Below the pieces are notes generated by a model. It did not search any database and had not been told where the DNA came from. It was given only the letters and a program-made list of their open reading frames with translations. Source: Escherichia coli (GTDB taxonomy: Bacteria > Pseudomonadota > Gammaproteobacteria > Enterobacterales > Enterobacteriaceae). Taken from it: DNA of 64,000 nucleotides. Position 1 is the stretch's first letter. Each line of letters begins with the position of its first letter. The position numbers and the translations under genes are program-made. The stretch is from NCBI RefSeq assembly GCF_045037415.1, contig NZ_CP173438.1. One strand, given 5' to 3'. Below, one piece after another: positions 2,435 through 39,156 of the stretch.

Positions 2435-3928
2435 TCAGGCGCTTTTACCGTTGTTAAAAATAGCCAGTTCATCCCAAATGGCGTCAATATGCGCGACAAC
2501 ATCTGGATCTTTTTTGATGGGACGTCCCCATTCACGCTGGGTTTCACCCGGCCATTTATTCGTGGCATCCAGCCCCATTTTTGAACCCAGCCCGGAGACA
2601 GGCGAGGCAAAATCCAGATAATCAATAGGCGTATTTTCTACCAGAACAGTATCCCGCGCCGGGTCCATACGGGTGGTAATCGCCCAAATCACATCGTTCC
2701 AGTCGCGGGCGTTGACGTCATCATCGCAAACGATCACAAATTTAGTGTACATAAACTGGCGTAAGAACGACCAGACGCCCATCATGACGCGCTTCGCGTG
2801 TCCGGCGTACTGTTTTTTGATCGTCACTACCGCCAGACGATAAGAACAGCCTTCCGGCGGCAGATAAAAATCGACAATTTCCGGGAACTGTTTTTGCAGA
2901 ATCGGCACGAACACTTCGTTCAGTGCTACACCCAGTACCGCAGGTTCATCTGGCGGACGCCCGGTATAGGTGGAATGATAAATCGCATCTTCACGCTGGG
3001 TAATATGCGTCACGGTAAATACCGGAAAACTATCGACTTCGTTATAGTAACCGGTATGGTCGCCATACGGCCCTTCCGGCGCAGTTTCGCCTTGTTCGAT
3101 ATACCCTTCCAGCACAATCTCCGCACTGGCGGGCACTTCAAGGTCATTGGAGATACACTTCACCACTTCGGTCTTGGTACCGCGCAGCAATCCGGCAAAC
3201 GCATACTCTGAAAGCGTATCCGGAACGGGGGTGACTGCACCGAGAATCGTGGCAGGATCGGCACCCAGCGCCACAGAAACCGGGAAACGTTCGCCCGGAT
3301 GCGCCGCACACCACTCCTGATAATCCAACGCGCCGCCGCGATGCGACAGCCAGCGCATAATCAGTTTGTTTTTACCAATTAGCTGCTGGCGATAAATGCC
3401 CAGATTCTGCCGCTCTTTATGCGGGCCACGCGTTACGGTGAGCCCCCAGGTAATCAGCGGCGCGGCATCTTCCGGCCAGCAGGTCATAATGGGAATGCGA
3501 TTGAGATCGACGTCATCGCCAGAGACGATTTTTTGTTGGCAGGGTGCACCACGCAGTCGCTTTGTCGGCATGTTCAATACTTGCTTAAACTGCGGCAGTT
3601 TATCAAACAGGTCGCGGAAACCTTTTGGCGGCTCCGGCTCTTTCAGAAACGCCAATAATTTACCAACTTCACGCAGCGCCGAAACATCTTCCTGCCCCAT
3701 GCCCATCGCCACGCGCTTTGGCGTACCGAACAGGTTGCACAGCACCGGCATTGAGTAGCCTTTAGGGTTTTCGAACAACAGCGCAGGCCCACCGGCACGC
3801 AAAGTGCGGTCAGCAATTTCAGTGATTTCCAGGTGCGGATCCACCGGGAGCGTGATACGTTTTAGCTCACCCTGCTGTTCAAGCAGCGTCAAGAAGTCGC
3901 GTAAATCGTTATATTTCATGGCGTCCAT
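2435..3928 (-). CDS. ubiD: 3-octaprenyl-4-hydroxybenzoate decarboxylase
   Basis: 497 aa, full-length match to UbiD ([13 protein letters not shown]...). Confidence 0.95.
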
Positions 3929-4049
3929 TGTAGCCTCTTAATCTGCGCCCATTATACGGCGTTCATCTTTGCGATGCTGTAAATTTGTTAAATTAGCGTG
4001 AACTCTGACGGTATAACGCAAACCGGGGAATATAATTAACTTAGCGTAA

Positions 4050-5362
<1,313 letters not shown>

Positions 5363-33130: not shown

Positions 33131-35392
33131 TTACCCCCGACGCAAATTCTGCGCCGCCTGCACCATGTTCGCCAGTGCCGCGCGGGTTTCTGGCCAGCCG
33201 CGCGTTTTCAGGCCACAGTCCGGGTTGACCCACAGACGCTCTGCCGGAATGCGTTTTGCCGCTTTCTTCAGCAAGGCTTCAATCCATTCCACGCTCGGTA
33301 CGTTTGGCGAGTGAATGTCATAGACGCCAGGACCGATTTCATTTGGATAATCAAACTCTTCAAACGACTCCAGCAACTCCATGTCGGAACGCGAGGTTTC
33401 GATGGTGATGACGTCTGCGTCCAACGCCGCAATCGAATCCATAATGTCGTTGAACTCGCAGTAACACATGTGAGTGTGGATTTGTGTGTCATCTTTCGCC
33501 ACGGCGGCGTTGATACGGAAAGCCTCCACGCCCCACTGGAGATAGGCATCCCAGTCGCTGCGACGCAGTGGTAAACCTTCGCGCAATGCCGGTTCGTCAA
33601 TCTGAATGATGCCAATTCCAGCGGCTTCCAGATCGGCCACTTCATCACGCAGTGCCAGCGCAATCTGTTTGGCGATGGTTTCACGGCTGACATCTTCACG
33701 CGGGAACGACCAGCAGAGAATAGTCACCGGGCCAGTCAACATCCCTTTCACCGGTTTATCAGTCAGGGATTGCGCATATTTTGCCCACTCCACGGTAATC
33801 GGTGCCGGGCGGCTAACGTCACCAATAACAATCGGTGGCTTCACGCAGCGGGAACCGTAGCTCTGTACCCAACCGTTTTGCGTAAAGACAAAGCCATCCA
33901 GATGCTCGCCAAAGTATTCCACCATGTCATTACGCTCGGCCTCGCCATGTACCAGCACATCCAGTCCCAAACGTTCCTGCTCAACAATGGCCTGCTTGAT
34001 ATGTTCCGCAATGCCCGTGCGGTAGTTATTGGCGTCGATATTACCCTTTTTAAAATCCAGACGCAGGGTACGAATCTCCGTGGTTTGCGGGAAGGAACCA
34101 ATCGTGGTGGTCGGCCACGCGGGCAGTTTAAAACGCGCACGCTGGGCTTCAGCACGCACTTCATAGACATTCGCACGCTGACTGTCCTGGGCGGTGATCG
34201 CCGCCAGACGCTTTTCTACTGCCGGATTATGTACACGAGTAGAGTGACGACGCGCCTGAATCGGAGCGCTCCACTCTGCCAGAGCTGCCGTATCACCACT
34301 GTTCAGCGCATCGCGCAGCAATGCCAGTTCATGACATTTTTGCAAGGCGAAGGCAAACCAGCTTTTCACTTCTGCATCAAGACGCGTTTCCACGCTCAGG
34401 TCGATGGGGCTGTGCAGCAGTGAGCAGGAAGATGCCACCCACAAATCACGTTTGCCGACAATGTCCTTAATTTGCGCATATTTCTCGGTAAGATCGGCGC
34501 GCCAGACGTTACGACCATTGATAAGACCCGCAGACAGCAGCCAGTCAGAAGGCAGGCGCTTGTGCAGTTCAGCAACGTCATCTTTACCATGTACAAGATC
34601 GACATGCAGACCCTGAACAGGCAGCGCAGTAATCGTGTCGAGGTTTGGCGTTACGCCTTCAAAATAGGTGGTCAGCAGCAGTTTCACCTGGCCCTGGAGC
34701 GCGTCGTAAGCGGGTTTGTATGCATCCAGCCACGCCTGCGGCAGTTCCAGCACTAGCGCGGGTTCGTCGATCTGTACCCACTCAATGCCGCGTTTCGCTA
34801 GTTCTGCCAGCACTTGCTGATAAACCGGCAGAATGTCGTTCAGCAGGCTCAGGCGATCAAACTGTTCACCTTTCACTTTACCCAGCCACAGGTAGGTAAC
34901 CGGCCCCAGCAGCACAGGTTTCACCTTGTGGCCCAGCGCCAGCGCCTCGTCCACTTCCTCCAGCAGCTGCGTCCAGGTCAGTTTGAACTGTTGGCCTTTA
35001 ACGAACTCCGGCACCATGTAGTGATAGTTGGTGTTAAACCATTTGGTCATTTCCGCTGCCGCCGCAGGTTCGCCAGTCGGTGCACGTCCACGACCAATAC
35101 GGAACAGGGTATCGATATCTACCGAACCATCGTTGTTCTGATGACGTTGCGGAACATTACCCAGCAGCAGACTGGTTGTCAGTACATGATCGTACCAGGC
35201 AAAATCGCCCACCGGCAGCAGGTCGATACCCGCTTGCTTTTGTTGATCCCAGTGACGAGCACGCAATTCACGCCCTACCGCCAGCAGTTCTTCACGCGTG
35301 GAGTTCCCCGCCCAATAACTCTCTTGCGCTTTTTTCAGCTCGCGACGCAGGCCAACGCGAGGGAAACCGAGGGTGTGATTAAGAATTGTCAT
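33131..35392 (-). CDS. metE: Cobalamin-independent methionine synthase
   Basis: 753 aa, full-length match to MetE ([23 protein letters not shown]...). Confidence 0.95.
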
Positions 35393-35422
35393 TATATGCC
35401 CCTTATGGAATTTTTAGTATTT

Positions 35423-35446
35423 AGCCGTCCAGATGTTTACACATCC
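35423..35446. promoter_or_regulatory. Tandem MetJ-box-like 8-mers in the metE-metR divergent control region
   Basis: agccgtcc agatgttt acacatcc, each 5-6/8 to the met-box consensus AGACGTCT. Confidence 0.4.
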
Positions 35447-35509
35447 ATAATTGGCGGTTACTGTATATTCCTCAAGCGCAAATTATTCATGCCGAAGTGA
35501 AGGACTTTC

Positions 35510-36463
35510 ATGATCGAAGTAAAACACCTGAAAACGCTACAAGCGTTGCGGAACTGCGGCTCACTCGCAGCCGCTGCGGCGACGTTGCATCAAACGCAAT
35601 CCGCCCTGTCTCACCAGTTTAGCGATCTGGAACAACGCCTTGGCTTCCGGCTATTTGTGCGTAAAAGCCAGCCGCTTCGCTTTACACCGCAGGGAGAAAT
35701 CCTGTTGCAACTGGCAAATCAGGTGCTGCCGCAAATTAGCCAGGCACTGCAAGCCTGCAATGAACCGCAGCAGACGCGCCTGCGCATTGCCATAGAGTGC
35801 CATAGCTGTATTCAGTGGCTGACGCCCGCATTAGAAAATTTCCATAAGAACTGGCCGCAGGTGGAGATGGATTTTAAATCGGGCGTAACGTTTGATCCGC
35901 AGCCTGCGTTGCAACAGGGCGAGCTGGATCTGGTGATGACGTCCGATATTCTGCCGCGCAGTGGCCTGCATTATTCGCCGATGTTCGACTATGAAGTACG
36001 TCTGGTGTTAGCACCTGACCATCCACTGGCGGCAAAAACGCGTATTACACCGGAAGATCTCGCCAGCGAAACGCTGTTGATTTATCCGGTGCAGCGTAGC
36101 CGACTGGATGTCTGGCGGCATTTTCTTCAGCCAGCAGGCGTCAGCCCGTCACTGAAAAGCGTCGATAACACCTTATTGTTGATTCAGATGGTTGCCGCAC
36201 GGATGGGTATTGCCGCACTACCTCATTGGGTGGTGGAGAGTTTTGAACGCCAGGGTCTGGTGGTCACCAAAACCCTGGGCGAAGGCTTGTGGAGCCGACT
36301 GTACGCCGCCGTGCGCGATGGCGAGCAGCGTCAGCCGATTACAGAAGCGTTTATTCGTTCAGCGCGCAATCACGCCTGCGATCATCTGCCGTTTGTGAAG
36401 AGCGCGGAGCGACCCACTTACGATGCACCCACAGTGAGGCCAGGATCACCAGCGCGCCTGTAA
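35510..36463 (+). CDS. metR: LysR-family regulator of methionine biosynthesis MetR
   Basis: 317 aa, matches MetR. Confidence 0.95.
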
Positions 36464-37250
36464 TAAACGTTGGCCAGTGCGGCTGTTGGTGCCAGATAGC
36501 CAGGTTTACCAGCAGCCCTGCCGGAACGTGCATATTATTCATAATGCCCAGCGTTCCGGCGTCCACCTGCGTCGCGCCGTAGTTCCACATAAAGTAGCCA
36601 ATCCCGGAAGCCACCACGCCAAGAAACACCAGAATGCCCCATTGCAACGTGGTTTGCGGCATTTTCTGCGCATTTCCCAGCAAGAACCATGCAATCACTG
36701 CCACCAGGAACGCGCCAAGATAGAACCACGCAAAGGCGTTATGCTGCGGCATCGGGCGAGTTTCCATCAGACGTTTGTAACCCACCATGCCGATGGCAAA
36801 AGTGATATTGGAGAGTTGCACCAGCAACAAGCCAGTCCAGAAATGGTCGGTGACCTGATCATAGCGAATAATCCCGGCACCAATCACCGCCAACAAGGCG
36901 CTAAAAGCATAGCCCCAGCGCAGACGGCGCTTACTCATGATGTCATAAATCAGCGTGATGTAGAGCGGCGTCAGTACGGTGAACAACAGCAGTTCAGAAA
37001 CCGTCAGGTAGAGATAGGCGCGGAAACTCAGCATATACATCACACCGAGCTGCATCGCGCCCACCAGCATATACAGGCCGACCGTTTTCAGGCTATTGCC
37101 ACGGGTACGCAGAAACGGCAGAAAAACAAGTGCCGCCAGACCAACGCGCACCAGCACCGCAAAATAGCTATCGACGTGCCCCGCAAGGTACTCGCCATAA
37201 AAGCTAAAGGAGAAGGCCCACAGAATCGTGGTGATGATAAGTAGCGCCAC
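36351..37250 (-). CDS. yigM: Inner-membrane transporter YigM (EamA/DMT family)
   Basis: 299 aa, 10-TM DMT-family protein matching YigM; 3' end overlaps metR convergently. Confidence 0.85.
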
Positions 37251-37325
37251 AATGGAAAACTCTTTGATTAACGAGTATCCATTGTAGCGAAGTATCAGGT
37301 TGACAACTGACCAAATAAAGAACGA

Positions 37326-38126
37326 TTACGATAAATAGAGCTTACGCAGATAATGCGGCACTGCGTCTTCGGCGTTAGTACCAATCACTTCCAGCTCTGG
37401 ATGCAGATCTTTCAGCCGTTGATGCGCGCTGCCCATAATGCAGCCTTTCCCCGCCATCGACAGCATTTCGGCATCGTTCATTCCATCGCCAAAGGCAATA
37501 CAATCTTGCAGGCTGTAACCCAGTTTCTTCGCTACCGCTTCCAGGGCATGGCCTTTTGAAACGCCGCCAGCCATGACTTCCAGGCAGGTTAAGGTAGAGA
37601 AACTGACATTGACGCGATCGCCCCAGCGAGCGTTAATCGCTTGCTCCAGTGGCAGAAGTTTTTCATGGGAATCGCAGGTGAAGAACACTTTGCTGACGCC
37701 TTCCGGCTCCAGCAATCCCGGCTCATACAGCGCATAATTGAACACCGCTTCTTTGAAAAAGCGCATCTCTTCCGGGCGATGGCGATTCATAAACCATTCG
37801 TCGTCGCGATAAACGTTAGTAATGATGTCCGGATTGTCGTTGACTACGCCAAACAGATCGCTGGCAATGTCGCGATCCAGGTTATGAGCAAAAATCAGGT
37901 TGCCATCCAGATCGTGAACGCGCGCGCCATTGGAGGTAATCATGTAAGACTTAATCTCCAGATTATCGCGAATTTGCCCCACATCAACGTGGTGACGACC
38001 GGTCGCAAACACAAAGTTGATGCCGCGCGCGGTGAGCAGCTTCAGAGTTTCTTTGGCGTAAGGGGATAACGTATGGTCGGGAGAAAGTAACGTGCCATCT
38101 AAATCAGACGCAACAACCTGGTACAT
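37326..38126 (-). CDS. yigL: HAD-family (Cof-type) sugar phosphatase YigL
   Basis: Matches YigL from MYQVVASDLDGTLL (266 aa); ORF-track N-terminal extension trimmed. Confidence 0.85.
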   Translation of the reverse strand: MYQVVASDLDGTLLSPDHTLSPYAKETLKLLTARGINFVFATGRHHVDVGQIRDNLEIKSYMITSNGARVHDLDGNLIFAHNLDRDIASDLFGVVNDNPDIITNVYRDDEWFMNRHRPEEMRFFKEAVFNYALYEPGLLEPEGVSKVFFTCDSHEKLLPLEQAINARWGDRVNVSFSTLTCLEVMAGGVSKGHALEAVAKKLGYSLQDCIAFGDGMNDAEMLSMAGKGCIMGSAHQRLKDLHPELEVIGTNAEDAVPHYLRKLYLS

Positions 38127-38133
38127 AAGAAAT

Positions 38134-39156
38134 TTAAACCTCTGTAGAGCGGTTTCCGCTGGGTGAGTTATGCCTGTTGAAAAAATCAACGATAGCGTGG
38201 AGCGCGACTGAGCGCATTGCGTCCTTTTCAAAAAGGATCTCATGGTACGCACCTTTAATTACCAACGGCCGTCCTCCTTCGACAGGATGGCCCGCAGCGG
38301 TGCGTAGTTCACAAAAACGGTCGTGCATGCGGTTATCCACCACGCGTTCCTCTTCAGCTTGTAAGAGAAGCGTTGGCGTGGCGTCATCACCCGCACCGGC
38401 TAACACCTGTTCGCCAGCCAGAATACTTTCGCGTACCCAATGGTAGGTCGGCCCACCGACGCGAATCGTTGGGTCATCAGCATAGAAACGTAAGTTACGT
38501 CGATATCGCTGTCTGCTGTGGGTCAGTACGTTGATAGCAAACGGCAACGCGCGCCAGCGCCCGGTGCCTATTGCATAGCCATCACGGAAACGTGGATGCG
38601 CTTCGGCCCAATTGAGGATCTGCCGTGCCATAAATGACGGCATACGAATCACGATCCCAAACATTGGCGCAGTTAGCGCAATGGCGTCACATACACCTGG
38701 ATGGCGTTGCAGAAATAATGTGGAGATCGCACCGCCCATCGAATGTGCCAGTATATAGCGTTTACGCCACGGACCGGGCTGAACCTCCTGTTGCCAGAAT
38801 GCCGCCAGATCATCAACATAATCATTAAAGCGATTAACATGCCCGAGATGTGGATCGGCTAACAGGCGACCGGAACGTCCCTGCCCGCGATGGTCGATGA
38901 TTAAAACATCAAACCCCGAATGGAACAGGTCGTAGGCCAGTTCCGCATATTTTACGTAGCTCTCAATACGCCCCGGGCAGATAACTACCACCCGGTCATG
39001 GTGCTGTGCGCGAAAACGGACAAAGCGAACCGGAATGTCATCCACACCAGTAAACTCTGCTTCATCACGCTGACGCCAGAAATCAGTCAGCGGTCCCATG
39101 GTAAAAGCAGCAAACGCGTTTTCTCTTGTTTCCCAGTCTTTTTGCTGCTGAAACAT
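38134..39156 (-). CDS. pldB: Lysophospholipase L2
   Basis: 340 aa alpha/beta hydrolase with HSMGG nucleophile motif, matches PldB. Confidence 0.9.
   Translation of the reverse strand: MFQQQKDWETRENAFAAFTMGPLTDFWRQRDEAEFTGVDDIPVRFVRFRAQHHDRVVVICPGRIESYVKYAELAYDLFHSGFDVLIIDHRGQGRSGRLLADPHLGHVNRFNDYVDDLAAFWQQEVQPGPWRKRYILAHSMGGAISTLFLQRHPGVCDAIALTAPMFGIVIRMPSFMARQILNWAEAHPRFRDGYAIGTGRWRALPFAINVLTHSRQRYRRNLRFYADDPTIRVGGPTYHWVRESILAGEQVLAGAGDDATPTLLLQAEEERVVDNRMHDRFCELRTAAGHPVEGGRPLVIKGAYHEILFEKDAMRSVALHAIVDFFNRHNSPSGNRSTEV

Follow-up and report, generated by a model that had tools for sequence, protein, structure and literature searches.

The convergent genes metR and yigM (bioP) of Escherichia coli share 113 bp at their 3′ ends, and we consider it very likely that this arrangement is a genuine overlap maintained throughout the family, in which two unrelated functional genes carry weakly conserved tails inside each other and each stop codon is locked by the coding sequence of the partner. 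Both genes lie in the window, i.e., the whole stretch of 64,000 nucleotides of contig NZ_CP173438.1 that was analysed, and their coordinates are given in Table 1 together with those of the features discussed below. The metR reading frame is closed by TAA at 36461-36463, followed immediately by a second in-frame TAA at 36464-36466, and yigM starts with GTG at position 37250 and is closed by TAA at 36351-36353. The yigM stop falls in MetR codons 281-282 and the metR stop in YigM codons 263-264, on opposite strands. Within the overlap, position 1 of the metR codons pairs with position 1 of the yigM codons, position 2 with position 3, and position 3 with position 2. The original prediction had placed a 113-bp overlap at exactly this position, as was borne out by the ORF list and the sequence, and the lengths of the two proteins as well as their stops agree with the annotation of K-12 MG1655; neither gene ends earlier in that reference or in the RefSeq annotation of strain SK1144.

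Table 1. Positions in the window of the metR/yigM gene pair and of the features within their overlap.
Feature	Position	Strand	Description
metR CDS	35510..36463	+	ATG start, 317 aa, LysR-type regulator; ORF list and annotation
yigM/bioP CDS	36351..37250	-	299 aa, EamA/DMT-family biotin transporter; ORF list and annotation
Tail-to-tail metR/yigM CDS overlap	36351..36463	both	113 bp
MetR F281-I282 (TTT ATT)	36350..36355	+	Complement is the YigM TAA stop plus the middle base of the E299 codon
Left part of the overlap, MetR-constrained	36351..36401		MetR residues 281-298 (last conserved segment) and YigM variable tail, ~283-299
Doubly constrained centre (~13 nt)	36404..36416		MetR A299-E300-R301-P302 (GCG GAG CGA CCC) versus YigM W279-V280-A281-P282 (TGG GTC GCT CCG)
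Right part of the overlap, YigM-constrained	36413..36463		YigM residues 263-279 and part of V280 (end of the last transmembrane helix); MetR tail 303-317
YigM V268 and I269 codons, choice restricted by the MetR frame	36444..36449	-	Stop avoidance

The metR/bioP overlap is real, ordinary and already known: it is annotated and has been published (PMC5120140), and mutual antisense transcription of the pair has been documented too (PMC12288877). In K-12 MG1655, bioP (b3827, 4011076..4011975, + strand) and metR (b3828, 4011863..4012816, - strand) overlap by 113 bp, and the same 113-bp overlap is present in the RefSeq annotation of strain SK1144, whose locus is 100% identical. Furthermore, of the 5426 complete E. 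coli genomes, 5422 had a match to a 1951-bp region that covered 80% or more of it, and the region is annotated everywhere in E. coli as metR, bioP (biotin transporter) and yigL. The metR/yigM overlap was described by Côté et al. (2016, mBio; PMC5120140), who found that the Keio metR deletion acts like a yigM mutant, being synthetically lethal with bioA and sensitive to the BioA inhibitor MAC13772, and who attributed this phenotype to physical disruption of yigM. Their yigM::apramycin deletion was built to spare the metR stop; its homology arm matches 36435-36484 of the window, where the metR stop is left intact. That deleting metR or bioP can harm the other gene is a practical point that has already been appreciated. 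The feature in the window does not differ in any way from the K-12 overlap of that study, the locus, both stops and the length of 113 bp being identical. The study of Côté et al. is without an analysis of conservation or of the division of constraint between the two frames, and what is new here is the conservation of the 113-bp length (76 of 80 loci) and the partition of the constraint between the frames.

Both metR and yigM are real genes and neither is a shadow ORF, as judged from their domains, structures, annotation and published functions. Specifically, MetR has an N-terminal HTH_1 domain (PF00126, residues 5-63, E = 4e-18) and a C-terminal LysR_substrate domain (PF03466, residues 86-288, E = 7e-48), a combination of Pfam domains that assigns it to the LysR-type regulators, and the PDB entry 5fo5 is E. 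coli MetR residues 1-92, identical over that range. YigM matched EamA (PF00892) in two stretches, the best of which covers residues 139-275. In its AlphaFold2 model, which has a mean pLDDT of 90.3, there are 11 helical elements, two of them being halves of one split transmembrane helix, and the last helix begins at residue 259. The two EamA repeats and approximately ten transmembrane helices obtained from Pfam and AlphaFold2 assign YigM to the 10-helix transporters of the EamA/DMT type, and the function of YigM/BioP has been described (PMC5120140, PMC4049904).

We examined the conservation of the overlap in 80 species-level loci, one genome per species, from approximately 18 genera of Enterobacteriaceae, including Escherichia, Salmonella, Citrobacter, Enterobacter, Kosakonia, Kluyvera, Trabulsiella and Pluralibacter. 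MetR identity in this set was 90-100% and YigM identity 80-98%, the scan having yielded only loci with MetR identity of at least about 90%. The overlap was exactly 113 bp in 76 of the 80 loci, while YigM identity dropped to about 80%. In the remaining loci, it was 116 bp (two loci, L032 and L080), 98 bp (L030, Citrobacter gillenii, with a MetR of 312 aa) and 68 bp (L062, with a YigM of 284 aa). Owing to the relatedness of the species, fewer independent events underlie these counts than the numbers suggest, and we attach no formal P value to them. Its conservation in relatives shows that the overlap is neither an annotation nor a sequencing artefact.

A 50%-representative search added three contigs outside the 80 loci. 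The contig L083 has the gene order yigM-metR-metE and a 98-bp overlap. Its YigM homologue (556-1455) aligns poorly to E. coli YigM only at residues ~205-245, where the segment looks out of frame, suggesting compensating frameshifts that come from an assembly error or a pseudogene. These apparent frameshifts explain why YigM of this contig is only 57% identical overall, whereas its MetR is ~92% identical. The YigM homologues of the other two contigs (L084 and L085; 294 and 292 aa, respectively) are 51% identical and are not adjacent to metR. In L085, the 3′ end of the homologue (3001-3879) extends 23 bp into an M20 peptidase gene that starts there on the same strand (3857-5020), and the C-terminus of the transporter seems prone to running into neighbouring genes. 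Separately, the record CACSKA010000013.1 (L054), which is titled 'Chryseobacterium sp. 18061', contains an Enterobacteriaceae-type metE-metR-yigM locus with a MetR 92% identical to that of E. coli, and it is probably a mislabelled record or a contaminated assembly.

To see how the constraint is shared between the two frames, entropy was calculated by codon position in an ungapped alignment of 78 sequences. In the flanks that belong to a single gene, variation was concentrated at the third codon position, as is usual: the entropies of the first, second and third positions were 0.11, 0.05 and 0.85 in the metR-only flank and 0.13, 0.04 and 1.03 in the yigM-only flank. In the left part of the overlap, entropy reached 0.62 at the third position of the metR codons and was 0.05-0.11 at the first two, indicating that MetR is the selected frame there and the YigM tail is carried along. 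The reverse holds for the right part, where the third position of the yigM codons had an entropy of 0.91 and the first two had 0.22-0.26; here, YigM is the selected frame and the MetR tail is carried along. The protein alignments agree with this division. MetR is invariant up to (K/R)(S/N)AERP and then continues as a variable xxDxPTxxPxSPxxx, and YigM is invariant up to (R/H)S and then continues as a variable xQTxDDRxRxSALxE. The convergent orientation of the genes places the variable tail of each protein across from the conserved end of the other. Most wobble sites in the overlap vary at near-normal rates. The original prediction had also held that the overlap constrains both sequences; this proved right for the ~13 central nucleotides and a handful of frozen wobble positions, but not elsewhere, since each half of the overlap follows the codon periodicity of just one gene.

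We next consider the stop codons, which set the length of the overlap. For invariant residues, the codon entropy within the overlap was set against that of control columns outside it in the same 72 species. The MetR codons F281 (TTT) and I282 (ATT) were found in all 72 species each, which corresponds to control quantiles of 0.05 and 0, and on the other strand the TAA stop of YigM and its E299 codon (GAA) were likewise present in 72 of 72 species. The TAA or TGA stop of metR is, in turn, the complement of the conserved YigM codons F262-(I/L)263-(T/I/M)264, and these codons also supply the tandem second stop of metR. Both stops, and hence the 113-bp length, are fixed because of purifying selection on the Phe-Ile/Leu codons of the partner. 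We also performed a recoding simulation, in which the amino acids of the partner were held and synonymous codons were redrawn from local usage. The 16-codon tail of YigM was open in 88% of the draws, and it was open in 76 of 77 loci observed, indicating that its length is nearly forced by the amino acids of MetR. On the other hand, the 15-codon tail of MetR was open in only 58% of the draws, versus 76 of 77 loci (99%) observed.

In the explanation that we favour, each protein bears a C-terminal extension of approximately 15-20 residues that is poorly conserved and probably flexible. Each extension is read antisense to the conserved terminal segment of the partner and runs on until the Phe-Ile/Leu codons of the partner (TTT ATT or similar) happen to yield a complementary TAA or TGA. 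Purifying selection on those partner residues locks both stops and the 113-bp length across the Enterobacteriaceae, and the sequence of the tails is mostly dictated by the codons of the partner, that is, it hitchhikes. True two-frame selection is seen at few positions: the MetR tail shows avoidance of stops and selection on a few residues, and the YigM tail shows it at Arg291, Arg293 and Glu299. Without a terminator, the mRNAs would enter the partner gene, which would make the pair a convergent 'excludon'; any regulatory consequence of the antisense overlap is putative.

Two inverted repeats were seen at or near the overlap. A perfect 8-nt inverted repeat brackets it, with CGTTTATT at 36348-36355 and AATAAACG at 36462-36469, and both genes show (A/T)-F-I codons (xCG TTT ATT) at the site of the partner's stop. 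The CG part of this repeat is seemingly Escherichia-like only, most other species having Ser (AGC/AGT) at YigM 261, and the bracketing repeat is probably a coincidence. The sole 9-bp inverted repeat (36520-28 / 36552-60) was considered as a metR 3′ structure and rejected; it has no T-run, and no more than 24-29 of 72 species preserve its wobble pairs.

No intrinsic or bidirectional terminator-like site was detected by a consensus scan of 36100-36700, and there was no Rfam match at E ≤ 1 on either strand of 35000-38000. Since no terminator separates the two genes, each transcript must reach at least 113 nt into the CDS of the partner, so that the two have complementary 3′ ends, and the geometry of the coding sequences makes transcript overlap obligatory whenever both genes are expressed. 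Mutual antisense transcription, as implied by the original prediction, is supported by this geometry if both genes are expressed, by the missing terminator, and by the published excludome, in which bioP-metR is among the 165 convergent excludons of MG1655 found with ExcludonFinder (Sanmartin et al. 2025, NAR; PMC12288877). In that study, a pair counted as an excludon when its strand-specific RNA-seq coverage overlapped in at least 50% of the 58 samples. Typical excludons overlap in untranslated regions and have a mean intergenic distance of 95 nt (PMC12288877), whereas in bioP-metR the coding sequences themselves overlap.

Given this antisense arrangement, the overlap could instead be an adaptive one, in which transcriptional interference or cleavage of the RNA duplex by RNase III makes metR and bioP antagonistic, and which has been conserved for coupling methionine/SAM regulation to biotin uptake. 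Biotin synthesis uses SAM, so a metabolic link between metR and bioP is plausible. The retention of the arrangement across the family, the absence of a terminator separating the two genes and the presence of bioP-metR in the core E. coli excludome (PMC12288877) would all fit such a role. However, the excludon call is automatic for any expressed pair with overlapping coding sequences, and purifying selection on both proteins, by locking the stops, fully accounts for the conservation. The Keio metR deletion, whose cassette adjoins yigM, abolishes YigM function, which could be taken as a sign of coupling, but Côté et al. ascribe the phenotype to disruption of yigM itself (PMC5120140). In addition, most wobble sites of the overlap vary at near-normal rates, which speaks against an RNA element selected for its sequence or its structure, and no conserved hairpin was found. 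A literature search on yigM and antisense returned nothing relevant, no anticorrelated expression of metR and bioP was seen in the literature, and the papers examined gave no pair-specific report of mutually exclusive expression or RNase III processing for bioP-metR. We regard an adaptive role of this kind as improbable.

The limits of the folded domains fit the partition of constraint between the two frames. The solved regulatory domain of Neisseria meningitidis MetR (4ab5) aligns to E. coli MetR 87-296, and residues 297-317 are outside the alignment. In the AlphaFold2 model of YigM, pLDDT was 89 for residues 271-280, 62 for residues 281-290 and 44 for residues 291-299. From the domain limits and the YigM model, with the LysR fold extending to ~296 and the YigM helix being confident to ~280, the folded cores do not overlap. 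The AlphaFold2 model of MetR was made from a 28-sequence alignment with 91% identity; its mean pLDDT was 46, and it is uninformative on disorder of the tail. YigM has 34 residues after the near-invariant G265 versus a median of 23 in 71 distant homologues, i.e., it is longer by about 11 residues, and this comparison of sequences is consistent with a modest C-terminal elongation.

Shortened forms of both proteins occur naturally. A YigM of 284-285 aa was found in P0063, P0076, P0077 (Salmonella serovar Gaminara) and L062, the Salmonella cluster with the short YigM having 66 member sequences, and a MetR of 312 aa was found in L030 and L083. These natural losses suggest that neither tail is essential, and we infer that the tails are disordered and largely dispensable. 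Growth on mineral salts medium with biotin has been described for the Keio ΔyigM allele (PMC4049904), which may have left the end of metR in place.

Selection in both frames was evident at a limited number of sites. In the centre of the overlap, codon entropy was 0 at MetR 299, 301 and 302 and at YigM 279, 280 and 282 across the 72 species, and all of these codons that have synonyms were at control quantile 0 (Trp has a single codon). The MetR codons GCG, CGA and CCC were each present in 72 of 72 species, versus averages of 5% for CGA and 11% for CCC in the control columns, and the YigM codons TGG, GTC and CCG were also each present in 72 of 72. In the right part of the overlap, YigM V268 is GTG in 78 of 80 loci; GTT or GTC at this site gives a MetR stop, and the sole locus with GTT (L030) has the truncated MetR of 312 aa. 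YigM I269 is encoded by ATA in 30 of 72 species (42%), versus 1% (maximum 3%) at 12 control Ile columns. It is ATA in all 11 species that have Met270, because ATC or ATT before Met270 would give a MetR stop; these 11 Met270/ATA (VIM) species represent only about 4-6 lineages. In addition, all 72 species encode YigM H276 by CAT, a choice that preserves MetR D305. In the other direction, the codons of MetR I282 (ATT, 72 of 72), H288 (CAC, 67 of 72) and C290 (TGC, 69 of 72) preserve YigM E299, R293 and R291, respectively.

For the MetR tail, 'mere hitchhiking' is an incomplete account, since the tail is open in 99% of loci versus 58% of simulated draws and forces the rare ATA in YigM. The MetR tail may be functional; that the tail (~303-317), or translation of metR deep into bioP, has been selected for a function seems unlikely to us. 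If it has, the MetR frame would impose non-preferred codons on YigM, namely ATA at Ile269, GTG at Val268 and CAT at His276. One possibility would then be that translation of the MetR tail protects the 3′ end of metR against the action of Rho or of bioP antisense, and such protection would link methionine/SAM control with biotin uptake. A new question opens only if these weak signals of selection on the MetR tail reflect a real function. At the other extreme, it is very improbable that one of the tails is non-functional read-through, with the proteins ending at the folded core and the overlap being a neutral frozen accident without selection on the tails: the natural truncations of YigM (including the 66-member Salmonella cluster and L062) and of MetR (L030 and L083), the free variation of tail residues where the wobble of the partner varies and the forced length of the YigM tail in 88% of recodings would fit this, but the frozen or biased synonymous sites (YigM V268, I269 and H276; MetR I282, H288 and C290) are intelligible only via the other frame, and the MetR tail is open far more often (76 of 77 loci) than the 58% expected.

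Tail-to-tail overlaps in prokaryotes arise by stop-codon loss and C-terminal elongation, and the metR/yigM pair resembles this class: its genes are ancient and unrelated, and the part of each that lies inside the partner is just a weakly conserved C-terminal extension. Typical convergent overlaps comprise a few bases, so that metR/yigM, at 113 bp, is much longer, and the length of its overlap is unusually stable across the whole family compared with the class. The antisense overprinted genes laoB and asa of EHEC (PMC5810103, PMC6294744) are similar to metR/yigM in that protein is coded on both strands. However, these are young, short genes lying wholly within an older gene, whereas MetR and YigM belong to old families (LysR and EamA) and only the ends of their genes interpenetrate. 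The pair illustrates in textbook fashion how a long convergent overlap can be maintained.

Two other reading frames in the vicinity were noted. An ORF of 255 aa (36477..37244, + strand), which begins 14 nt past the metR stop and lies antisense to yigM in the directly opposite frame, was rejected as a shadow ORF; it was not conserved, as its longest open run ranged from 69 to 297 codons with differing stops across the 72 species. The mechanically called ORF of yigL (37326-38252, - strand) is 308 aa long from an upstream GTG, and the annotated YigL has 266 aa (801 bp); the annotated start is presumably the real one, since the longer ORF enters the 3′ end of pldB.
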